Program-made: the position numbers and the translations under genes | Shown here: in pieces, positions 35,237 through 52,193 of the stretch | Layout of the letters: each line of letters starts with the position of its first letter | Position numbering within the stretch: position 1 is the stretch's first letter | Source of the DNA: Dehalococcoidia bacterium | Lineage (GTDB): Bacteria; Chloroflexota; Dehalococcoidia; Lucifugimonadales; UBA3495 | Length of the DNA stretch: 64,000 nt | Direction of reading: 5' to 3' | Assembly (NCBI GenBank): GCA_965243185.1 | Contig: OZ251531.1 | Location: 2,214,532 to 2,278,531, forward strand | Notes under the pieces: model-generated | Told to the model about the DNA's origin: nothing | Databases searched by the model: none | Seen by the model: the letters and a program-made list of their open reading frames with translations, nothing else

Positions 35237-35369
35237 ACGCAGATTGTTGCTTTGCAATACCAAGCCCGGTTGCGCGGTAAAATCTGCCTTAACTAAAAAT
35301 GCTCTGAAAGCAAATGGAGACATCGCGGGGATTAAGGCACAGCGGCCGCCGGGCGGCAAGGAGCTATTG

Positions 35370-38300
35370 ATGGACGGAGATGGAGCAAATCGTCTCTTTT
35401 TCTGCCCGGCCGGGCCAGCGGCCGCGGCGGCCTTGGGATCTTATGTCCGGGCCATACAAGGGGATGACCCCTTGGCGCCGGTTACCGTGGTCGGGCCATC
35501 GACTTACGCCAACCTGGCCTTGCGGCGGGAGTTGGGGCGCGGCGGGTTGGCTAATGTGGGATTTGTGCATCCGCATCGGTTGGCCGATTTGTTGGGTGGG
35601 CCGCGGCTGGCGGCGCGGGGATTGCGGCCGCTGACGCCGCTAGTGGAAAGCCAAGCCCTACGGCAGGCGGTGAGCCAGACGGACGGCTTGCTGCGGGAAA
35701 AAGGCTACCATCCCGCTACGCACCGGACGCTAAAGGCGGCGATACGGGAACTGGCGCAGCTCTCCCCGGCGGAAAAGACGGCGTGGCAAGGGCGCGGCAG
35801 CCAGTTGAGCCGGGAGATATTGCAGATTGAGACCGCCTTTCGGGAGCTTACGGCCGGTTACTACACCGAGGCCGAGGATTTGGCGCAGGCGGCGGCGTAC
35901 GGGGTAAGAACCGGCGGACAGGGCAACGCCCTGACCGACTTGGGATTGGTGATTTTCTTTCAACTGCGGCGGATTACGGCGGGGCAGCAGGAGCTTATTG
36001 AATCGTTAGCGGCCGCCGGTAAATGCGCCGTTTTTTTGCCGCTGGTGGGCGATGACGAAGGCGACCGGGCGGCGCGGGAAATCGCGGAACGATTGACCGG
36101 CGCTTTGGGGACGCCGACGGTTTATGCTGAGGTTGGGTCAAGTAGGGATGGAAATGCGCCGCCCGCCGACCGGGTTTCCGGGATGCGGCTGCTGGTAGCC
36201 CAAGACGCCCATCAGGAAATACGGTGGGTTATCCGCAACATTTTCCGCCAGATCAGCAGCGGTACGCCGCTGCACCGGATCGCGGTTCTGTATCGGCAGA
36301 CTTTCTACGGCGCGCTGATACCGGAGGAGTTGGCATTAGCCGGTCTGCCGGCAGCCGGGCCAAATACGACGCCGCTGACGCAAACCGGGCCGGGGCGGAC
36401 GCTGACCGGCTTGGTCAACTTGGCGCAAGGCGTCCGGGCGGCGCAAGGGCGGGAACTGCCCCGGGAGGAAGTTACGGCGTGGCTGACCGCTTGCCCGGTG
36501 CGCTTTCCGGGCGGGTTAGCGGCGGATTTTAACCCCAGCCAGTGGGACAATATATCCAAGCAAGCCGGCATCGTCCGGGGCTTGGCGCAGTGGCAGGATA
36601 AGCTGAGCCGGTTGGCTAGTGACCGGGCGCGGCAAGCGGAACGTTTAGCTGCGCAGGGGGAAGTGTCCGAGGCCAAGGCGGAATTGATGGCGGCGGAAAG
36701 CCGGGCCGCCGGACAACTGCGCGGGTTTATTACCGGGTTGGCGGCGGCGTTGATGCCGCCAGCCGAGGGCAGTTCGTGGGGCGAGTTTGCTCAGTGGGTC
36801 AGGAAACTGCTGGAACGCTACGGGGCGGCGGCTACCCTGTCCGATGCCGAAGCGCAAAACCGGGAACGGATTGGCGAAGTAGTAGCAAGCCTGGCCGAAC
36901 TGGATCAACTGGAGACCGGCGGTATCGGGTCTGACCGGTTCCGGGAGACTCTGGATGAAGCCTTGGCCGGAACGCCGGGACGCTTGGGGGCAACGGGGCA
37001 AGGGGTCTTTGTTGCGCCGTTAAGCCAAGCGGCCGGAATGTCCTTTGACGCGGTACATCTGGTCGGAATGGTCGAGGGGGCGTTTCCGCCGCCACTACGG
37101 GAATCGCCGCTGCTGCCGGAGTCGGAAAAACCGGCTGAAGTGGGCGCTGGTTGGCGGCCATCCCGGTCGGAACGGTTAGCCGATGAGCGGCACAACTTTA
37201 TGGCGGCCCTGGCGGCGGCGCCGCTGCAAACCCTTTCCTATCCCTTGGCCGACGCCGGCGGTTCCCGGGGCAACTACCCGTCCCGGTGGTTTCTGGAACA
37301 GGCAACGCGGCTGGAAGGGAAAGCGGTGCGGAGTTCCACCCTGAAATCCCTGGTCAATCAAAAGGAGTGGCTGACCGCCATCGGTTCCCCGGAACAGGAA
37401 TTTGGCAGCATCGCGGGTTTGGCGGCGGCCGACCAGCACGATTATGACCTGGCAAGTTTGTGGGATTGCCGGGAACGGAGCGGCGGCATTCGGCAGCATC
37501 CCCTGGCTAAAGAGGGCATCCTGGCCGGCGCGCTGCAAGTAGGTCGGAGCCGCTACAATCCCTATTACGGCTCCTACTTTTCGGAATGGAACGGCAACTT
37601 GGCTGGGGCCGCCGGCCCGTCGGGATTGGCCGGCGGGTTGAGCGGACAAGTGCTTTCGCCGACCGGCTTGGAAAAGTGGTCCAACTGCCCCTTCAGCTAC
37701 TTTCTGGGGCAGCAACTGCGGTTGAGCGCGCAGGACAGCCCGGAGGACATCTACCGCATATCGGCCTTGGAGCAGGGTTCGCTGATCCACGAAATCCTGG
37801 AGCAGTTTATCGGGCAAGCCCGGGAGCGGGGAACGGTGCCGCCGCCGGGGCAAGGGTGGACGGATGCGGACGCCGGGGTTTTGCAGGAAATTGCGGAAAG
37901 GGCGTTCCAGGAAGCGGAAAGCCGGGGCATTACCGGACGGACGCTGCTGTGGCGAATGTCCCAAGCGGATATTCGGGATGATTTGACGGCATTTCTCGAA
38001 GCGGATACGTATGTGCGGGAACGGTTCGGCTTGTCGCCGGCGCGGGAGGAAGCGCGGTTCGGCATTGACGGCGACAACGCCGCCGATAGCTGGGCGGCGG
38101 CGGTCTATCGGCTGCGGGACGGGACGGAAATACGGTTCCGGGGCGTGATTGACCGGGTTGACCGGTCGGCAGACGGGCGGGCGGCTTTGGTGCTGGACTA
38201 CAAGAGCGGGGGCGCCAGTCGGTACGCCGGTTTGGAGGAGGATGCCATTGATAAGGGGCGGCGATTGCAGTTGGGCATTTACGGACTGGCGGCGCAGCAG

Positions 38301-38663
38301 GCTTTGGGCGCGGAAGTGCAGGTGCGGGCGGCGTACTGGTTCGTGAGCAGCCGGGGCGGGTTCAAGCTGATACCCGAGGAGCCGGTGCGTATGGAGGATG
38401 CGGCGGTGCAGGAACGGTTTGAGGAAGGCATCGCCGCCATCGTCTCCGGGATTCGGGGCGGCGTGTTTCCGGCTAATCCGGGGCCGTGGGATTTCAACAG
38501 TTTCTTGGGCAAGTCCAACGGCAAGAACTGCCATTACTGCGATTTTGACGCCCTGTGTCCGGCGCGGCGGGTGAACCTGTGGGAACGGCTGAAAGGCCGC
38601 CGGGAAAATCAGCGGGCCCTGGCCGGCTATCTGGAATTGGCTGAGGAGGAGTCTGAGGAATGA
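35370..38663 (+). CDS. addB: AddB/AdnA-like helicase-nuclease subunit (PD-(D/E)XK nuclease with C-terminal Fe-S cysteines)
   Basis: About 1100 aa. C-terminal DYKSG nuclease motif and CHYCDFDALCP. AAGGAG RBS before ATG 35370. The stop overlaps the next gene's start (ATGA). Confidence 0.75.
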   Translation: MDGDGANRLFFCPAGPAAAAALGSYVRAIQGDDPLAPVTVVGPSTYANLALRRELGRGGLANVGFVHPHRLADLLGGPRLAARGLRPLTPLVESQALRQAVSQTDGLLREKGYHPATHRTLKAAIRELAQLSPAEKTAWQGRGSQLSREILQIETAFRELTAGYYTEAEDLAQAAAYGVRTGGQGNALTDLGLVIFFQLRRITAGQQELIESLAAAGKCAVFLPLVGDDEGDRAAREIAERLTGALGTPTVYAEVGSSRDGNAPPADRVSGMRLLVAQDAHQEIRWVIRNIFRQISSGTPLHRIAVLYRQTFYGALIPEELALAGLPAAGPNTTPLTQTGPGRTLTGLVNLAQGVRAAQGRELPREEVTAWLTACPVRFPGGLAADFNPSQWDNISKQAGIVRGLAQWQDKLSRLASDRARQAERLAAQGEVSEAKAELMAAESRAAGQLRGFITGLAAALMPPAEGSSWGEFAQWVRKLLERYGAAATLSDAEAQNRERIGEVVASLAELDQLETGGIGSDRFRETLDEALAGTPGRLGATGQGVFVAPLSQAAGMSFDAVHLVGMVEGAFPPPLRESPLLPESEKPAEVGAGWRPSRSERLADERHNFMAALAAAPLQTLSYPLADAGGSRGNYPSRWFLEQATRLEGKAVRSSTLKSLVNQKEWLTAIGSPEQEFGSIAGLAAADQHDYDLASLWDCRERSGGIRQHPLAKEGILAGALQVGRSRYNPYYGSYFSEWNGNLAGAAGPSGLAGGLSGQVLSPTGLEKWSNCPFSYFLGQQLRLSAQDSPEDIYRISALEQGSLIHEILEQFIGQARERGTVPPPGQGWTDADAGVLQEIAERAFQEAESRGITGRTLLWRMSQADIRDDLTAFLEADTYVRERFGLSPAREEARFGIDGDNAADSWAAAVYRLRDGTEIRFRGVIDRVDRSADGRAALVLDYKSGGASRYAGLEEDAIDKGRRLQLGIYGLAAQQALGAEVQVRAAYWFVSSRGGFKLIPEEPVRMEDAAVQERFEEGIAAIVSGIRGGVFPANPGPWDFNSFLGKSNGKNCHYCDFDALCPARRVNLWERLKGRRENQRALAGYLELAEEESEE

Positions 38664-41600
38664 CCAGCGCATTTACGCCGCAGGATGACGCCGCCCGGCA
38701 GCGGATCTTGCACGGGTTGGGCGATACCCTTTTTGTCGAAGCCGGCGCTGGCACCGGCAAAACCACCAGCTTGGTGGGTCGAGTGGCAAACCTGGTTTCC
38801 AGCGGCGCAACTACCTTGGATCGGGTAGCGGCCATTACCTTTACCGAAGCGGCGGCGGCGGAACTGCGCGACAAAATCCGGGAACGATTAGAGGAGTCGG
38901 CGGCGCCGGATTCGGCGTTGCGCGACCTTGAACGGGAACGGTGCGAGCGGGGATTAGCCGACCTGGATCAGGCATCCTTTCAGACTTTGCACAGTTTCGC
39001 CGGCGGCCTGCTGCGGGAGCGGCCGCTGGAAGCCGGGCTGCCCATTGCCTTTCAGATTGCCGACCCCATTGTCAGCCAGTTGGATTTTGACCGGGCGTGG
39101 CGGGATTGGCTGGATACGGCGTTGGAAAGGGAGGAGTTACAGGTACCGCTGACTATGGCTTTGTCTTTGGGATTGAACCTGACGCGATTGCGGGAGGTAG
39201 CCGTCGCCTTTCACCAGAATTATGACATCGTGGAACAGACGGATTTTGAGGATGGAGAGGACTCCGAGGATAAGGAGCCGGCAAATCCGGTAGCCGGTCA
39301 ACTGGCGGCGGAAGCGGATGAACTGGCGCGGCTGTGCGGTTACTCCCGGTTGGGCGCGGAGGATGCCCTGTATCAGCATACGCAGGGGGTAATTGCCGCC
39401 GGCCGCCGCCTGGACGGGATGAACCCCACGGCGGCGGAAAGCTATCGGCTGCTGCAAAAAGTGCGGCTGTCCTGCGGCCGCGGCCGGCAAGGGGATTGGG
39501 ATAACGACCCTAAATCGGGCGGCAACGCTTGCAAACTGCTGAAAGACCGGCTTAAAGAACTGCAAGCTGCCGCCAATGATGAATTGGCCGCGGCCCGACG
39601 CCAATCCCTGTTGCTACTGCTGCGGGAACTGCGGACTTTCGTTCTGGACTACGCGGCGCAACGGAAGGCGGCGGGCAAGGCGGAATATAATGACCTGCTG
39701 ATTTGGGCGCGGGATTTGCTGCGGGACAACCTGGCAGCCCGGGATTACTTTCGGGGGCGGTTTTCCCATCTGCTGATTGACGAAGTGCAGGATACGGATC
39801 CCATCCAAGCGGAAATCGCAATGTTTCTGGCCGAAGCGGTTACGCCGGGGATAGCGGCCGCCGGGCGTCCCCAAGAGTGGGAAGCGATTACCCCGGAAGC
39901 CGGCAAACTGTTCGTCGTGGGCGACCCGAAACAGTCCATCTATCGGTTTCGGCGGGCCGATGTGCGGCAGATGAACCGGCTGCGGCAACGAATGGGCGGG
40001 GAAACTCTGCAACTGACCCAAAACTTCCGCTCCCAGCGGCCGGTTATCGCTTGGGTCAACCGACTCTTTGAGCAGTGGATGAGGCAAGGCAGCCCGGAGC
40101 AAGCCCAGTATGTGGACTTAATCCACCGCTGGGACGGGGCGTCGGAACATCTCCAGAAGCCGGGAGTGTGGCGGCTGGGCGCCGGCATTGACGAAAATGT
40201 TAATGCAGTACGGCGGGAAGGCGCGGAAGCAGTGGCCAGCCTGCTGTCCGGCATTCCGGGGGAAGGCTGGCCAGTGCGGGATACGGCCGCTGCCGGGGAA
40301 CAGTACCGGGACGCCGGCTTTTCCGATGTGTGCATCCTGATGCCGCGGCGGACTTCCCTGCGGGAGTTGGAGCAGGCGTTGGATGACGCTGACCTACCGT
40401 ATCGGCTGGAGGGTTCGTCGCTGATTTTTGACACCCAGGAAGTGCGGGATTTGCTGAACTGCCTGCGGGCCATTGACGACCCGGCGAATCAAGTAGCCAT
40501 TGCGGCGGCGCTGCGCTCGCCGGCCTTCGGCTGTTCCGATATTTCCCTGCTGGAGTTGGTACAGGCGGGCGGCAGTTTTGACTATCTGGCCGAACTGCCG
40601 ACAGCGGCGGCGGCCGGGCCGGCCAGTCAGGGTTTGCGCGAATTGAAAGGGTATCACTACGCCCGGCTGGAGGAATCGCCGGCTTTGCTGATGGAGCGGT
40701 TTATCCGGGAGCGGCAGCTGATGGCGGCGGCGTTGGAACAGCAACGGCCGCGGCAGCAGTGGCGGCGGTATCGGTTTATGATTAACCAGACGCGGGCCTT
40801 TACCGAAGCCGGCGGCGGTTCCCTGAGGGAGTTTTTGAGTTGGGCGGAACAGCAAGCGGCGGAAAATGCGCGGGTTACTGAAACGCCGGTTCCCGAGGAG
40901 CAAGAGGAAGCGGTGCGGGTGATGACGGTCCACGGAGCCAAGGGGCTGGAGTTTCCGATAGTGATTCTGACCGGGTTGGATTCGGGCAGTCCGAACCGCA
41001 CTGAGACCGTATTGGTGGACCGGGAACGGGGGCAAGTCGAGGTTCGGATGGGCAGCGGCAGTCAGGTTTTTGAGACGCCGGGCTATGCCGAACTACGGGA
41101 ACGGGAAGGGCAGCTTGGCGCGGATGAAGCGGTACGGCTGCTCTATGTAGCGGCAACCCGGGCCAAAGAGCATCTGGTGGTGAATATGTACCACCGGGAG
41201 GAAGGGCGGGATTGCCCGGCCCGGCAAATCGCCGCCTTGCTGGAAAGCGATGATGGAACGGGAATGTGGGAAAGGATTGACGCGCCGCCCCTCGACCCAG
41301 CGGCGGCCGAATTGTTAGCGGCGGCGGCCCCGGCAACGCCGGAAACGGCAAGGGATTTTATGGGGCAGCGGGAGCGGTGGCGTCAAGAACGGGCGAAACT
41401 AATCCGGGCGCAGAGCCGGCCGATTTCCGTAGCGGCCACTACCCTGGCCCGGGTGGCTAAAGAGGAAGCGGCCGAAACGGCGGCTGAAACCGAACCGTGG
41501 CGGCGGGGGCGCGGCGGAACTTCAATCGGGCGGGCGGTACACGCCGTCCTACAAACCATTGACCTGGCGACCGGGGAAGGATTAGCGGAAACGGCCCAAG

Positions 41601-42034
41601 CCCAAGCCGCCGGGGAGAATATCCCGGGGCGGCGGCAGGAAATTATTGACTTGGTCCAAGTAGCTTTAGATAGCCCGGCAGTGCGGCGGGCGGTGGCGTC
41701 CGGGCGGTACTGGCGGGAAGTGCCGGTAGCCGCGCCTTTGGGCGACGGGCTGGTCGAGGGCTTTATCGACCTGCTCTATGAAACCGAGGGCGGGTTGGCC
41801 GTGGTCGATTACAAGACGGACGATATTGACGCGGCGGAAACCGGGGAGACGCTGCAACGTTACCGGTTGCAGGGCGGCACCTACGCTTTGGCCGTGGAGC
41901 GGGCGACGGGGAAAGCAGTAAAGGAAGTCGCGTTCCTGTTCCTGCGCCCCAACCGGGAGGAACGGCTGACCGACATCGGGCAACTGACCGCGGAAGCGGA
42001 AGGGCGGGCGTTGGCGTATTTGCAGGGCGGGTAG
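38660..42034 (+). CDS. addA: AddA/AdnB/RecB-like UvrD-family helicase-nuclease
   Basis: Walker A AGAGTGKT, DEVQDT, VMTVHGAKGLEFP, and a C-terminal GFIDLLY...VVDYKTD nuclease motif. Confidence 0.85.
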   Translation: MTSAFTPQDDAARQRILHGLGDTLFVEAGAGTGKTTSLVGRVANLVSSGATTLDRVAAITFTEAAAAELRDKIRERLEESAAPDSALRDLERERCERGLADLDQASFQTLHSFAGGLLRERPLEAGLPIAFQIADPIVSQLDFDRAWRDWLDTALEREELQVPLTMALSLGLNLTRLREVAVAFHQNYDIVEQTDFEDGEDSEDKEPANPVAGQLAAEADELARLCGYSRLGAEDALYQHTQGVIAAGRRLDGMNPTAAESYRLLQKVRLSCGRGRQGDWDNDPKSGGNACKLLKDRLKELQAAANDELAAARRQSLLLLLRELRTFVLDYAAQRKAAGKAEYNDLLIWARDLLRDNLAARDYFRGRFSHLLIDEVQDTDPIQAEIAMFLAEAVTPGIAAAGRPQEWEAITPEAGKLFVVGDPKQSIYRFRRADVRQMNRLRQRMGGETLQLTQNFRSQRPVIAWVNRLFEQWMRQGSPEQAQYVDLIHRWDGASEHLQKPGVWRLGAGIDENVNAVRREGAEAVASLLSGIPGEGWPVRDTAAAGEQYRDAGFSDVCILMPRRTSLRELEQALDDADLPYRLEGSSLIFDTQEVRDLLNCLRAIDDPANQVAIAAALRSPAFGCSDISLLELVQAGGSFDYLAELPTAAAAGPASQGLRELKGYHYARLEESPALLMERFIRERQLMAAALEQQRPRQQWRRYRFMINQTRAFTEAGGGSLREFLSWAEQQAAENARVTETPVPEEQEEAVRVMTVHGAKGLEFPIVILTGLDSGSPNRTETVLVDRERGQVEVRMGSGSQVFETPGYAELREREGQLGADEAVRLLYVAATRAKEHLVVNMYHREEGRDCPARQIAALLESDDGTGMWERIDAPPLDPAAAELLAAAAPATPETARDFMGQRERWRQERAKLIRAQSRPISVAATTLARVAKEEAAETAAETEPWRRGRGGTSIGRAVHAVLQTIDLATGEGLAETAQAQAAGENIPGRRQEIIDLVQVALDSPAVRRAVASGRYWREVPVAAPLGDGLVEGFIDLLYETEGGLAVVDYKTDDIDAAETGETLQRYRLQGGTYALAVERATGKAVKEVAFLFLRPNREERLTDIGQLTAEAEGRALAYLQGG

Positions 42035-42136: not shown

Positions 42137-43435
42137 TTACAAGGCTCCGTCGAGGCGGTGGAGGAGCAAGCCGGTAGGGAGTTTGGGGTAAAAGAAGGTG
42201 GATTTGGAAGGGAGCCGCTGGCCGCCGCTGACGATGGATTCAAAGGCGTCCATAGGAAAGGGTTTGAGCAGAAATGCTATTTGCCGGCGGCCGGCGGCAA
42301 TCAGTTGGGCCGCTTGGGCCGGGTCGTGGCTGTAGTCCACATATTGGGCGGTATCACCTAGAAGGGGCTGAATAACCTGTTCATCCAACAGCCAAGCCGT
42401 AGAGACCGCCAAGCTGCCCCAGCGTTGCCAGTCAATTTCCGGTTTAAGGGTCAATAGCTGCGGCGGAGTGTCGCCGGGGCCGAGGATCCCGACGGTATGC
42501 CGGCCCGGGCCGCGGTCAATGACCTGCTGAGCCAATTGCGCCGGGCTGATGGTCGGGTCGAGGGGTTCCGGGTCGAACAGCTCCAGCAATCGCTGCGGCA
42601 AGGCGGTCAGTTGCTCCGGGGAAAGGCCGCCGATAAGTTTGTGGTAGGGGAGCAAGAGCAAGCCGGGGTCGTCAAACTCGGTAAGGGACATCATTACATA
42701 GTTATGGGCGGCGTCCGGGCTGGCGGCGTTGGCGGCTTGTTCCTGGCCTTGACGGTAGCGGCGGGCGGCCTCGTAGCGATGATGACCGTCGGCAAGAAAG
42801 ACCGGGCGGGCGGCGAAAAAGTCGGTGATGGCCTGCTGCGCGGCCGGGTCAGCAATCGGCCACAGGGCAAGCGCTCCGATATTGCTGTCCGGGATCGGCA
42901 GCGTTTCCAAGTCCGGGGGCGCTGCCATTACCTGGTCAAAGATATGGCGGAGTTCCCCGGCAGAATCGCGATAGAGGGTCATCAGGGGGCTGAACTGGGT
43001 TTGCGCGGCTTGCAGCAAGTCTACCCGGTCAAGGACTGCCGGCTCCCGGGTGAATTCGTGGGGCAGCACGGAGCCGCCATCGTAATCCTCGACCAGCACC
43101 GCGCCAAATAGTCCCAACTGGGCCCGTTCCTGTCCCTGATGCCGGTAGGAATGGCGCATCAGGTAAAAGGCGGGCTGTCCGTCGCGGCGGAGGATGCCGG
43201 CGGTTTGCCACTGCTGAAAGAGGTCGGCGGCCTGCTGGTAGCCGGCAGCCGGGTTCACCGGGTCGGGCTGTTCGCCGCCTTCGAGGTGTACGGCGTTGTA
43301 GGGGCTGCGCCGTTGCAAGACGGCTTTGAGTTCGGGGCCAATCATATCGTAGGGGGGGCAAAGGACGGCGTCAAGGGGGCCGCCGAGGGCCGGCGGATGG
43401 TAGCGAAGGCCGCGGAAGGGACGGAATACGGTCAT
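42137..43435 (-). CDS. DUF1015 family protein
   Basis: N-terminal MTVFRPFRGLRY, typical of DUF1015/COG4198; 432 aa. Confidence 0.7.
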   Translation of the reverse strand: MTVFRPFRGLRYHPPALGGPLDAVLCPPYDMIGPELKAVLQRRSPYNAVHLEGGEQPDPVNPAAGYQQAADLFQQWQTAGILRRDGQPAFYLMRHSYRHQGQERAQLGLFGAVLVEDYDGGSVLPHEFTREPAVLDRVDLLQAAQTQFSPLMTLYRDSAGELRHIFDQVMAAPPDLETLPIPDSNIGALALWPIADPAAQQAITDFFAARPVFLADGHHRYEAARRYRQGQEQAANAASPDAAHNYVMMSLTEFDDPGLLLLPYHKLIGGLSPEQLTALPQRLLELFDPEPLDPTISPAQLAQQVIDRGPGRHTVGILGPGDTPPQLLTLKPEIDWQRWGSLAVSTAWLLDEQVIQPLLGDTAQYVDYSHDPAQAAQLIAAGRRQIAFLLKPFPMDAFESIVSGGQRLPSKSTFFYPKLPTGLLLHRLDGAL

Positions 43436-43644
43436 AAGGGGGCTGCTCCCTGGGGATTATTGGCATTATTCTACCGGATAGACGGGATTTGAGGGTGCCG
43501 GAATCCCGTTGGCAAGAGAATAACAATTGTGGGAGTGCCGTAGGGATTTCGGGTAAGAATTTTTAGATTCCGCGGCGCAACCGCGGAATGACCCGGAAGG
43601 GCGGCGGGAGTTTCCGGTGAAATTTCAGACCCGGCCGCCCTTTA

Positions 43645-44082
43645 CTAAGGTTCCCCCAAAGTGGAGCGCATATCGCCCCGGGCGCGGCGGCGGCGGACGA
43701 TGTTGAGGCGAACTTGGGCGCGGCGGACAGCGGCGGCGGCGCGTTCCAGTTCCAGGTCGGTGGCATGGGTTTGCAGTCGTTCCTGGGCGCGGGTCATGGC
43801 GGTTTGGGCGCGTTCCTCGTTGATTTCTTGGGAATACTCGCAGGCGGCGGCAAGGATGGTTACTTTGTTGGCCAGCACTTCCATAAAGCCGCCGGTAACG
43901 GCGAGGTAGGAAGGTTCGCCGTCTTTGCGAATCATAACTTCGCCGGGCTGCAAGGCGGTCATCAGGGGGGCGTGGCGGGGCAGGATGCCCAACTGGCCGC
44001 CGATGCCGGGGGCGACGACGCTGTCCACCTGGTCGGCAAAGACCTGGCGCTCGGCGGTGATGATTTCGAGTTGCATGGGCAT
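43645..44082 (-). CDS. atpC: F1 ATP synthase subunit epsilon
   Basis: 145 aa. N-terminal beta-sandwich motif (GILPRHAPL) and C-terminal helical hairpin. Last gene of the atp cluster. Confidence 0.88.
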   Translation of the reverse strand: MPMQLEIITAERQVFADQVDSVVAPGIGGQLGILPRHAPLMTALQPGEVMIRKDGEPSYLAVTGGFMEVLANKVTILAAACEYSQEINEERAQTAMTRAQERLQTHATDLELERAAAAVRRAQVRLNIVRRRRARGDMRSTLGEP

Positions 44083-44085
44083 AGC

Positions 44086-44796
44086 TTAAACTCCCGCTAC
44101 TTCTAAAACTAGCTGCTTGACCGCTTCCGTCGCTGGGGCGGCTGCTGCATCCAAGGCCAACTTTACGTCGCTCATTTTCTTGAGCGGCAATGCCGCTTCC
44201 TGCAACAGCAACTGATGATTTCCCTCTCTTTCTGGGGTCAGCTTCGAGTAAGAGACCGCCCACAGGGGCTTGCCCTGCTTTACGCACTCCATTGCGGCGT
44301 TGATGGTTCCACCGGTTTCTTGGGCTTCCACCACGAACAAGCCCGTGGACAAGCCCACAATCAGCTTGTTGCGGGTCATTGCCCGCCAAGACTGCCAAGT
44401 CGCCTCCGGCTCAAACATAGAGATAGCCAGAAAATTACTGTCCATCTCCACAAGACTCGCCAACTCCCGCCGGATGGAGAACCCCGCAATGCCCTCGGGA
44501 AGCACCGCGATAGTGCTTCCCCCGGCAGCCAATGCGCCTTTATGGGCTTGCCGGTCAACGCCGCGGGCGTACCCGCTGACTACTAACAGGCCGCGTTTGG
44601 CTGCCTCGTTGCCAAACCGGAATGCCCATTCGTGGGCCTCGGCAGAAGCCGCCCGGGAGCCGCAAATGCCAACCCCGGGCTGGGTCAACAGGTCGATGTT
44701 TCCGATGGCGTACAGGGTTACGCTGCCAAGGACGCCCCGCAGCCGCTCCGGGTAACTGGGGTTGGTAGGGGGAATGGCAATGTATTGCATTTTCAT
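44086..44796 (-). CDS. DprA/Smf-like (SLOG Rossmann) protein, ShosA-like
   Basis: GSRAAS...VVSGYARGVDRQAHKGALAAGGSTIAVLPEGI matches the DprA core. Its ATGA overlaps the upstream PRTase stop (an alternative ATG is at 44802). Its stop is 3 nt before the atpC ATG. Confidence 0.75.
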   Translation of the reverse strand: MKMQYIAIPPTNPSYPERLRGVLGSVTLYAIGNIDLLTQPGVGICGSRAASAEAHEWAFRFGNEAAKRGLLVVSGYARGVDRQAHKGALAAGGSTIAVLPEGIAGFSIRRELASLVEMDSNFLAISMFEPEATWQSWRAMTRNKLIVGLSTGLFVVEAQETGGTINAAMECVKQGKPLWAVSYSKLTPEREGNHQLLLQEAALPLKKMSDVKLALDAAAAPATEAVKQLVLEVAGV

Positions 44797-45605
44797 TCCC
44801 ATCGCTCCTTATTCAGGCCGACGCCCCCATTAGTGAATTTGGCGTCTTTGGCAACAGACAGACCGTAAACTTCCCTCGCGCCAGCTTCTCGTAACGCCCG
44901 CGCTATTTCCTTCAGCGTCCCTCCTGAGCGGATTGTGTCGTCCAGAATAAGAACCCGCTCACCGCCGGTTATCTCGGACACCCCTACGCTATGGGCAATT
45001 CGGTTGGTTAAGTCGGTTTCGTTTTCTCCTTCGTTCCAGTCTTTTTGCGGGCCAGTTACTCGGGTCTTGTAACTGCTTATCCGACGCCAACCCCGGTTGC
45101 GGGCAATCTCTTGCGCCCACTTGCCAACCAAGTCTGGAGTACCAGGGTCGCTTTTGGGAGCGGAGATAATAGCGTTAACCGTCCTGATCGGTAGATGTCC
45201 CTCTATGAAATCCTCAATACGAGTTAGGCAATAAGAACTCGCAGACGAGTTGCGCCAATACTTCGCCTGATTGACCGCATTGCCCCACGAGGAGGTGCTT
45301 CTCCGTTCACCCTCAAACAAACTGTAGGGACCGAGAGCATAGCACTCATCCAGCTCTGGCGACAGGTCAATAATTACCCTATGTTTAAGCAGGTCAAAGA
45401 ACCTGAACAGCGTATCCGGTTCCCTGACCCCCTCCAGAATAAACGCAGGGTCGAGAAAGTCGACTTGAGACATCGCCGAAGCCAAGCCAGACCGCTTTAC
45501 TACCTCCTCCAAGTTGCCATGCCCTTCCAGCCGCAACTGCAACCGGTAATCTTGCCCGGACACCGGCGTGAGTTCGTAGGAGTGGAAACAACAGCAGTTG
45601 GGCAT
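44793..45605 (-). CDS. Phosphoribosyltransferase-domain protein, ShosT-like
   Basis: C-terminal PRPP-binding loop VLILDDTIRSGGTLKE; 270 aa. GC is visibly lower than in flanking atp genes. Confidence 0.75.
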   Translation of the reverse strand: MPNCCCFHSYELTPVSGQDYRLQLRLEGHGNLEEVVKRSGLASAMSQVDFLDPAFILEGVREPDTLFRFFDLLKHRVIIDLSPELDECYALGPYSLFEGERRSTSSWGNAVNQAKYWRNSSASSYCLTRIEDFIEGHLPIRTVNAIISAPKSDPGTPDLVGKWAQEIARNRGWRRISSYKTRVTGPQKDWNEGENETDLTNRIAHSVGVSEITGGERVLILDDTIRSGGTLKEIARALREAGAREVYGLSVAKDAKFTNGGVGLNKERWE

Positions 45606-45635
45606 ACGACAAACCTGATAGAACTTTTGTTTGCC

Positions 45636-45664
45636 ATTATTGCATCCCCGTAAAGGGATGTCAA
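45636..45664 (-). promoter_or_regulatory. sigma70-type promoter TTGACA-N17-AATAAT in front of the PRTase gene
   Basis: The minus strand reads ttgaca tccctttacggggatgc aataat, immediately after the atpD stop. Confidence 0.5.
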
Positions 45665-45671
45665 TACCCGC

Positions 45672-47138
<1,467 letters not shown>

Positions 47139-51123: not shown

Positions 51124-52193
51124 CTAATGCTCCTCGTGATGCACCGCCAGGGACAGGAATACCAGGGTCAAGCCGGCAAAGATTACCGCCTGAATCAGCC
51201 CCACCAGCAGCTCGAGGCCGAATACAAAGACATTGGCGACGAACGGCACCAGGAAAGTAATCATCACTACCAGGATTTCCCCGGCGGTCATATTGCCGAA
51301 CAAGCGGAAGGTAAAACTGACAATCCGCACCAGTTCGCTGATGAGTTCCAGGATGCCGACGAAGGCGTCAATAAGACCGCTCGGCCGCAGCCGCAGCAGG
51401 TTGCCAAAGGCAAAGAACTTCTTGAAATAGCCCAAGCCCAATACCCGGATGCCCCAATACTCGACAAAAACGAAAGACACCAGAGCCAAAGCCAGGGGCA
51501 TATTAACATCGGTGCCGGCCGGCCGAATCAGATGGGCTTTCAGCTGAAAGTCCCACCAGCCGCCGCTGCCAAAGCCCACCGCTTGGTACAGCGGCACCAG
51601 AAACAGCGCAATCCAGGCGTTGAACAGCACAAAGAAAAATATCGTTGCCACTACCGGAAAGGCTTTGCGCGCCATCTCCCGCCCTAGCACACTGGCCGCA
51701 AAGTTCAGCACCCCCTCAAAGATACTTTCGACCAACGACTGAAAGCGTCCCGGCACCATCGCCCGTTTGCGCGCCCCAGGACAAAGAACAGGACAATGAC
51801 GATGCTGGCCACCCAAGCGGAGAGCAGGGTGTTGGTAACGGCGAATTGGGTAACGCCGAGGGGGGTGAAGTGGTGTTCCTCCGCCCCGTGTTCGTCATGT
51901 TCCCCGGCATCGGCCGGGTGCTGTTCGGCGTCCACGGCGGCGGTAGCGTGTTCGGCGGCGGGTTTTTCCGCCTCGGGGTATTGGGTATCCGCATAGCCGA
52001 GGCTGCTTTTGACGGCGGAAAAGGGAAAGACCGGCTGCGGCGGCAAATGAATCTCCGGCTGCGCCAAAAACGGCCGCTCCAGCCCGAACATCGTAGAACC
52101 GATGGCCCCGACCACGAATCCGGCAATCAACAGCGCCAGCATAACCACGCCGGCCAGCAACGCAAACCTTTTAGCTCCGGCCCCCGAAGGCAC
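51124..52193 (-). CDS. atpB: Fo ATP synthase subunit a, reading frame broken by a 1-nt shift at the C/G run 51774-51777
   Basis: The N-terminal part (track ORF 51705-52193) ends ...IVIVLFFVLG in one frame. The C-terminal part (51124-51816) continues ARKRAMVPGRFQSLVES in the -1 frame. Joined, they give a normal subunit a. Confidence 0.8.

Follow-up and report, generated by a model that had tools for sequence, protein, structure and literature searches.

A phosphoribosyltransferase and DprA-like gene pair between atpD and atpC in Dehalococcoidia: a putative minimal module of the PsyrTA/ShosTA class diversified by allele exchange

The window analysed here is a stretch of 64,000 nucleotides (nt) of contig OZ251531.1 from a Dehalococcoidia bacterium, and within it the ATP synthase (atp) operon carries two additional genes between atpD and atpC. 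The first encodes a phosphoribosyltransferase (PRTase) fold protein and the second a DprA-like protein; the pair is referred to below as the cassette, and the features of the locus are listed in Table 1. A 66-nt spacer separates atpD from the PRTase open reading frame (ORF). The PRTase stop codon and the DprA-like start codon share an ATGA overlap, which is also the start chosen by gene callers in relatives (ATG at 44796, giving 236 amino acids, aa); an alternative ATG at 44802 gives 238 aa. The DprA-like ORF ends with a TAA at 44086-44088 and the ATG of atpC follows, after 3 nt, at 44082. No terminator-like site was found between atpD, the cassette and atpC, and an Rfam scan of 43400-46000 at E values up to 1 gave no match, indicating that no riboswitch or leader lies in this region.

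The GC content of the PRTase gene is 0.539 (0.60 at third codon positions, GC3) and that of the DprA-like gene is 0.589 (GC3 0.69), compared with 0.60-0.67 (GC3 0.71-0.80) for the atp genes and ten unrelated genes of the window. The dip across the cassette is real but uneven. An earlier note on this DNA had described the two ORFs with their ATGA overlap, a loop for binding phosphoribosyl pyrophosphate (PRPP), a DprA core, the 3-nt gap before atpC, a TTGACA-N17-AATAAT promoter after the atpD stop, a GGGAG ribosome-binding site of atpC inside the DprA-like ORF and a lower GC content. All of these are present in the sequence and Pfam analyses, and atpC is physically coupled to the cassette.

Table 1. 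Features of the atpD-atpC junction in the 64,000-nt window, in which the whole atp cluster lies on the minus strand, and retropepsin-like ORFs in the atp operons of relatives (L-numbered contigs)
Feature	Position	Strand	Basis or detail
atpD (F1 beta subunit), upstream flank	45672-47069	minus	Pfam PF00006, PF02874, PF22919; canonical
Hypervariable swapped segment, promoter region and about the first 215 PRTase codons	~44950-45675	minus	identity break against L113
Cassette promoter, sigma-70-type	45636-45664	minus	-35 TTGACA at 45659-45664, 17-nt spacer, extended -10 TGcAATAAT ending at 45636
LexA-box-like palindrome AAACAAAAGTTC	45621-45632	minus	one mismatch to GAAC-N4-GTTC
PRTase gene, 270 aa, putative toxin/effector	44793-45605	minus	Pfam PF00156, E 4.6e-8, residues 184-246
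PRPP-binding loop VLILDDTIRSGGT, PRTase residues 218-230	44916-44954	minus	read from sequence
DprA-like gene (SLOG/Rossmann core only), 236 aa, putative neutraliser	44086-44796	minus	Pfam PF02481, E 1.3e-45; PF18306
GGGAG ribosome-binding site of atpC, within the 3' end of the DprA-like ORF	44091-44095	minus	read from sequence
atpC (F1 epsilon subunit), downstream flank	43645-44082	minus	Pfam PF02823, PF00401; canonical
Retropepsin-like ORFs of relatives	L014:6117-6497, L016:6001-6375, L017:6134-6508, L018:6121-6501

The PRTase opens with a variable, beta-rich N-terminal part (residues 1-75) that bears a C4/C6/H8 motif. This part is missing in some alleles (L113, P0063 and P0065; L-numbered loci are contigs of relatives that were compared with the window). 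A conserved DECYALGPY motif with an invariant C88 is also present, and the type I PRTase core bears the PRPP loop with its DD-x3-SGGT pattern intact; D222, D223, G228, G229 and T230 are at least 90% conserved in an alignment of 29 family members. The N-terminal C-x-C-x-H and the invariant Cys of DECYALGPY could form a metal site. A Pfam scan of the protein found no second domain and no helicase domain, and the PHROGs database yielded nothing meaningful and no family for it. The PADLOC library matched it to PsyrT (1e-13, 48.5 bits, residues 104-254) and to ShosT (5.2e-7), the PsyrT match covering only the C-terminal PRTase part of the profile (positions 537-684 of 689). Conversely, the family profile also matches long proteins by their C-termini only, and these resemble PsyrT/RqlH fusions.

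An AlphaFold (AF2) model of the PRTase built from 29 family members (pLDDT 91.8) has a short beta-rich N-terminus and a PRTase core. Its top Foldseek matches were PurF, ShosT, APRT, PurR and ComF, the last at rank 20. The best query TM-scores belonged to the ShosT structures 8zvb, 8zvc and 8zvd (0.45-0.46), over alignments of about 220-236 columns with TMt values of 0.30-0.33, or roughly one domain. Membership in ShosT proper was considered and rejected, because the family alignment, searched as a profile against PDB sequences, met only the generic PRPP loop and did not recover E. coli ShosT.

The DprA-like protein has a clear DNA_processg_A domain (PF02481) and, more weakly, resembles the SLOG family PF18306 (4.9e-9) and the LOG model TIGR00725 (4e-9). 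Its best match in any library is PsyrA of PADLOC (4.3e-49, 165.7 bits), followed by ShosA (4.7e-34), and these matches are confined to the Rossmann part of the profiles: positions 85-287 of 303 are covered in ShosA and the first ~100 positions of PsyrA are lacking. Among PDB sequences it matches DprA (3uqz, 1.5e-20) and ShosA (9vzo, 1.3e-9). It aligns to positions 76-278 of the 374-position PRK10736 model, and it has neither a SAM domain at the N-terminus nor a winged-helix domain at the C-terminus. The protein ends in a tail of roughly 35 aa, which clade 3 alleles lack. The motifs GICGSRxAS and SGxAxGxDR are invariant in the alignment, and across alleles the PRPP loop and the DprA motifs are both conserved.

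These searches bear directly on whether the pair is a canonical competence comFC and dprA that is merely sited in the atp operon. Both domain types do occur in natural transformation proteins, where ComFC and DprA both handle single-stranded DNA (ssDNA), and the window pair likewise sets a PRTase fold with N-terminal Cys residues beside a DprA Rossmann core; weak matches to comF (1.4e-4) and GntX (4.2e-4) were recorded. However, the comF model TIGR00201 scored 21.8 bits against a cut-off of 233.6, covering the PRPP loop only, and the dprA model TIGR00732 scored 134.9 bits against 191.2, with the SAM and winged-helix domains absent. The PRTase conserves C4, C6, H8 and C88 and has no CxxC...CxxC, unlike the 4-Cys finger of ComFC, and the pair is accessory, hypervariable and missing from most relatives. 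A competence role is very improbable, and assignment to ComFC and canonical DprA, which the earlier note had named as a refuting outcome, is contradicted by both NCBIfam scores.

Several characterised systems combine the same two domains. ShosT is a 424-aa protein with an N-terminal pyrophosphatase-like Rossmann domain (~164 aa) and a PRTase domain, and its toxicity requires PRPP binding and the Asp residues of the PRPP pocket (PMC11961720). Its partner ShosA combines SAM and Rossmann domains with a labile C-terminal tail, and no binding occurs between ShosT and ShosA. For RqlH/RqlI (PsyrTA), genotoxicity and SOS induction reside in the PRTase pocket, toxicity depends on the Asp residues of that pocket, and the DprA-like RqlI keeps it in check (PMC4670107). 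In the characterised relatives generally, the toxin provokes DNA damage, the SOS response or filamentous growth, and the DprA-like partner neutralises through ssDNA and RecA without binding the toxin (PMC11961720, PMC12961424, PMC4670107). Protection against T7 and lambda has been demonstrated for a DprA and PRTase pair found in P2/P4 hotspots (Rousset et al. 2022).

The window pair shares with PsyrTA/RqlHI the best profile matches for both proteins and the order of the genes, with the PRTase gene first and the DprA-like gene directly downstream. Unlike RqlH, the window PRTase has no RecQ-like helicase domain, and the pair lies inside the atp operon with a predicted LexA-type operator. With ShosTA it shares adjacent, co-oriented PRTase and DprA-like genes and an intact Asp-Asp PRPP loop, whereas the pyrophosphatase-like domain of the toxin and the SAM domain of the partner are lacking. 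The P2/P4-hotspot pair, likened here by description and not by sequence, has the same two domains and sits on prophages or satellites beside cos sites, whereas the window pair is chromosomal and within an essential operon. By its profile matches the cassette appears to be a stripped-down form nearest to PsyrTA/RqlHI and ShosTA. Architecturally it belongs to neither and is counted as a minimal variant; of the ShosTA or DprA-PRTase identity proposed in the earlier note, the domain pair and gene order stand in PADLOC and the extra toxin and SAM domains do not.

The PRTase family is small, with only 73 clusters in a search of 5.8 billion proteins and 69 representatives at E <= 1e-30 in an exhaustive hidden Markov model search. 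When one genome per GTDB species was scanned, 18 proved to be carriers, and the titles of all of them name Dehalococcoidia or Chloroflexota metagenome-assembled genomes. A more distant family member (P0098) lies on a 1.3-kb contig without readable context. Together with contigs obtained by exact protein look-up, the GTDB-species carriers gave 24 loci with readable context, every one of them from Dehalococcoidia/Chloroflexota. Complete genomes that bear the cassette include OZ240220.1, OY730415.1 and OZ219949.1. The order atpD, PRTase, DprA-like gene, atpC was found in 19 of these 24, one of which has an extra gene before atpC; in the others the pair lies directly after atpC (one locus), directly after dnaN (three) or elsewhere (one). 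Spacing is also conserved, with a gap of mostly 49-78 nt between atpD and the PRTase gene, an overlap of 1-10 nt between the two cassette genes and a distance of -1 to +16 nt (16 loci) from the DprA-like stop to the atpC start. Downstream of dnaN there is a second conserved landing place beside an essential conserved gene (L006:4810-7451, L022:6671-9328 and L023:6796-9443), with DnaN 90% identical among the three.

The lowered GC content had been taken in the earlier note as the mark of a mobile insertion, and the cassette does lie below its flanks in GC, has a promoter of its own and is absent from some close relatives. That it is a recently and horizontally acquired mobile defence cassette that landed in the atp operon is nevertheless hardly probable. 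The same layout recurs among carriers whose AtpD proteins are 74-100% identical, and the pair at one site in such divergent relatives is what that note had itself named as evidence against recent insertion. Cassette GC3 (0.38-0.74) is lower than atpD GC3 (0.74-0.94) in every locus, so low GC3 is a lasting trait of the pool of cassette genes and not a signature of arrival, and low GC as a sign of recent horizontal transfer was rejected for that reason. The window cassette is bounded by no direct or inverted repeats, only by short chance matches, and no recombinase, integrase or transposase was found in any examined locus, nor any phage copy in IMG/VR. The cassette tree agrees by and large with the atp clades, except that L012 and L013 group together and that the non-atp locus L004 falls within clade 2. 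In one relative (L112) the same allele as in the window is present, about 95% identical in nt throughout and in step with its flanks.

The cassette is accessory, being present or absent among close relatives. In nearly all of the 80 best metagenomic relatives of AtpC no gene intervenes between atpD and atpC, and in a tree of AtpD and AtpC the carriers fall in at least five patches among non-carriers. Two non-carriers (L029 and L031) nest within the window's own clade, and the atpD of L031 is 92% identical in nt to those of the carriers L009-L011, above their identity to the carrier L007.

Where the cassette is present, the PRTase gene has been replaced between otherwise near-identical operons. 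The window and L113 share 99, 100, 100 and 99% aa identity in AtpA, AtpG, AtpD and AtpC, respectively, and 94% in the DprA-like protein, with 60% in the PRTase. The corresponding values are 97, 99, 100 and 97% for the atp proteins, 99% for the DprA-like protein and 61% for the PRTase in L016/L017; 99, 100, 100 and 99%, 92% and 52% in L021/L024; and 99, 99, 100 and 98%, 78% and 60% in L009/L010. At the nucleotide level the window and L113 are about 95% identical across atpA, atpG, atpD, the DprA-like gene and atpC, falling to 11-57% from about 45710 to 45150 and returning to 88-93% by about 44940. The other three pairs follow the same pattern of collapse and recovery; identity is lost sharply from the atpD stop codon onward and is regained just past the codons of the PRPP loop or where atpC starts. 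The L113 allele encodes 225 aa and has no promoter, with a 26-nt spacer containing an AAGGAG ribosome-binding site.

Synonymous sites of the PRTase are saturated between such alleles (proportion of synonymous differences, pS, 0.66-0.79; nonsynonymous divergence, dN, 0.29-0.47), whereas synonymous divergence (dS) in the flanks is 0.04-0.33, which indicates allele replacement by recombination. Between alleles the PRTase dN/dS ratio is 0.1-0.3 where computable, and both genes are under purifying selection. The PRTase alleles thus appear to be old and functional, and would have been exchanged by homologous recombination through the atp anchors instead of diverging in place. The contrast between 99% identity in the DprA-like protein and 61% in the PRTase of L016/L017 fits a type IV neutraliser that makes no contact with the toxin, and this decoupled evolution is a further likeness to ShosTA. 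Accessory presence and PRTase allele swapping together restore, and sharpen, the interpretation of the pair as a conflict system.

The same comparisons weigh on the suggestion of a module with a metabolic or regulatory link to ATP synthase, in which a salvage-type PRTase (forming, for example, AMP from adenine and PRPP) and a SLOG partner that binds or hydrolyses nucleotides would match the adenylate pool, or the expression of the epsilon subunit, to energy status. Such a role would suit a pair that lies in or beside the atp operon in 20 of 24 loci, to which atpC is translationally coupled, and which retains an intact PRPP loop and the weak LOG and SLOG matches. Against this, most relatives do without the pair and four loci carry it after dnaN or at another site, hypervariability is unexpected of a salvage enzyme, the DprA signal (1e-45) lies far above that of LOG, and no NCBIfam salvage-enzyme model came close to its cut-off. 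We consider this suggestion quite improbable.

Upstream of the PRTase gene, a consensus scan matched the promoter at 11 of 12 positions plus the TG extension. The region contains three promoter-like sites against 1.6 expected, so the match in the window is weak evidence when taken alone. A TTGAC -35 element recurs at the equivalent position of the spacer in about 15 other loci, together with a -10-like element. An inverted repeat inside the promoter spacer (CATCCC-N6-GGGATG, 45643-45660) is not conserved in other loci and is treated as a probable chance occurrence.

A palindrome lies 4 nt past the -10 element of the window and 15 nt before the PRTase ATG. Dehalococcoides LexA reportedly uses GAAC-N4-GTTC. 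That sequence occurs exactly in L007, L012, L014, L015, L016 and L017, at -17 to -25 from the ATG and with an N4 spacer that differs in each of the six loci. It is also known as the LexA motif of Firmicutes and Actinobacteria (PMC3323433). With one mismatch it is found in the window, L009, L010, L013 and L018, giving a fixed position in 11 loci altogether. The window's own palindrome is not significant alone (22 one-mismatch sites against 19.4 expected). Exact copies number zero in the 64-kb window against 0.7 expected, and elsewhere in about 970 kb of the loci there is only a handful, of which the five examined lie in coding sequence. No box was found upstream of the large ORFs of the window, among them DinG-like, MutS and AddAB-like genes. 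The conserved position of the palindrome over the promoter suggests that expression of the box-bearing alleles is gated by the SOS response, on top of read-through from the atp promoter.

Control of this kind would be equally natural for a non-toxic accessory pair for DNA repair or recombination, inducible by SOS and only incidentally placed in the atp operon, in which the DprA-like protein would serve as a mediator for RecA at damaged DNA and the PRTase as a ComFC-like handler of ssDNA or nucleotides. Besides the LexA-type palindrome over the promoter in 11 loci, such a function is consistent with the intact DprA core motifs and the bona fide DprA proteins that are the closest solved relatives, with ComF among the fold matches and N-terminal Cys and His residues that recall the ComF zinc finger, and with purifying selection on both genes at a site kept for a long time. 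PRTase alleles of 52-61% identity between flanks of about 95% identity are not expected of a repair factor, however, and neither are absence from the closest relatives and atypical GC3. Furthermore, defence and toxin-antitoxin profiles outscore the dprA and comF equivalog models, which both stay below cut-off, and the cargo of sister operons is of the defence or toxin-antitoxin type. We regard a repair function as rather unlikely, although it is the foremost of the rival explanations.

The cargo in question lies at the same or a neighbouring junction. L019 has a complete HEC-01 candidate defence pair between atpG and atpD (L019:4750-6482), consisting of HEC-01A, an AAA_21 ATPase (2.5e-119), and HEC-01B, a DUF4276 protein (7.8e-54); the same locus has a gene for an HSDR_N-like nuclease-fold protein of 343 aa between the DprA-like gene and atpC (L019:9635-10666). 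Two Chloroflexota-like metagenome contigs without the PRTase pair have, between atpD and atpC, a 74-aa ORF and a PaREP1/HEPN-like ORF of 128-129 aa (L050:2241-2867 and L066:265-899), and a partial copy of this cassette occurs at L096:4616-4825. The 74-aa ORF of L050 and L066 had no family match. In clade 2 loci, a retropepsin-like aspartyl protease ORF of 124-126 aa lies between atpG and atpD (DTGA motif, PF13975 at 9e-9, GC ~0.53; Table 1). The HEC-01, HSDR_N-like and PaREP1/HEPN genes support the view that the atp operon offers a recombination-friendly, core-flanked site to conflict-type cargo. As in other defence hotspots flanked by core genes, low-GC cargo varies between conserved genes, different systems fill the same junctions in different genomes, and exchange proceeds by homologous recombination. 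The atpD-atpC and atpG-atpD sites differ in lying within one essential operon, with cargo translationally coupled to an essential gene and not placed between operons or beside tRNA genes.

Taking these observations together, we lean towards an SOS-responsive, genotoxic PRTase with a DprA-like neutraliser, forming a minimal module of the PsyrTA/ShosTA class that resides between atpD and atpC and has diversified through the exchange of alleles. The pair would then be a minimal type IV toxin-antitoxin or abortive-infection module, long lodged in several Dehalococcoidia lineages. Its PRTase is predicted to bind PRPP through the DD-x3-SGGT loop and to move the phosphoribosyl group onto some acceptor, a transfer that may upset purine and DNA metabolism and so be genotoxic. 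The co-translated DprA-like protein would bind ssDNA and RecA and offset the damage without binding the toxin. Expression could come from atp read-through and, in the window allele, from the sigma-70 promoter with its LexA-type operator, such that DNA damage or SOS induced by a phage would raise it, and atpC would be translated from the same mRNA, 3 nt past the DprA-like stop. The conserved atpD and atpC flanks probably anchor the homologous recombination that swaps PRTase alleles and sometimes the whole pair, a pattern that would fit a conflict gene under diversifying or frequency-dependent selection.

A number of points weigh against this interpretation. Toxicity, neutralisation and a defence function are extrapolated from E. 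coli proteins with extra domains that are absent here. By sequence the PRTase is no closer to E. coli ShosT than to other PRTases, and its Foldseek TM-score to ShosT is just 0.45. Retention at one site among carriers with AtpD identities down to 74%, together with purifying selection, would also fit a housekeeping role, and SOS control would equally fit repair. No copy was detected when IMG/VR viral contigs were scanned with the PRTase profile. Neither the window nor the 112 other sequences searched contain a lexA or recA gene with which the motif could be compared, and the clade 3 alleles, the dnaN-linked loci and L113 are missing the palindrome or the promoter, indicating that such control would be allele-specific.

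A stronger version would make the atp operon a recombination-driven defence hotspot into which the PRTase/DprA-like module has been wired, with an SOS-controlled internal promoter, translational coupling and synthesis of the epsilon subunit dependent on the cassette. This version seems to us unlikely. If it were true, the module would be hard to delete, with addiction through an essential gene, or, alternatively, DNA-damage and phage signals would feed into the regulation of ATP synthase; selection would have kept GC3 constantly low so as to slow translation of the toxin in a highly expressed operon.

Islands, prophages and intergenic hotspots are where modules for defence or of the toxin-antitoxin type are usually recorded, and here one candidate sits inside a conserved essential operon. 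A literature search found no description of a PRTase-DprA pair at the atpD-atpC site, in line with the earlier note, which knew of none; the kind of system is already known, and no account of its genomic niche was found. Near-identical operons with divergent PRTase alleles, or with no cassette, constitute a natural experiment. The alleles suggest that diversifying pressure on a PsyrT/ShosT-type toxin is directed at the promoter and the N-terminal ~215 residues, and that co-evolution of the DprA-like partner with the toxin is not required. A single-domain, minimal module of the PsyrTA/ShosTA class would be convenient for biochemistry, and the palindrome suggests SOS (LexA) control of the class. 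To our knowledge, almost nothing is known of phage defence in uncultured Chloroflexota, and the atp-operon and dnaN-downstream junctions are worth scanning there for defence cargo.

Two further observations concern the surroundings of the cassette. The window's atpB (subunit a) is split into overlapping minus-strand frames (51705-52193 and 51124-51816), with a break at about 51777 where a G run is one nt shorter than in L112 and L113 (G5 to G4); the probable cause is a homopolymer error of long-read sequencing carried into the assembly, and not a real frameshift. Synteny between the window and L112 or L113 stops directly after the atpC stop (43000-43640), and the DUF1015 gene (42137-43435) and AddAB-like pair (35244-42034) of the window are not what comes next in those two relatives.

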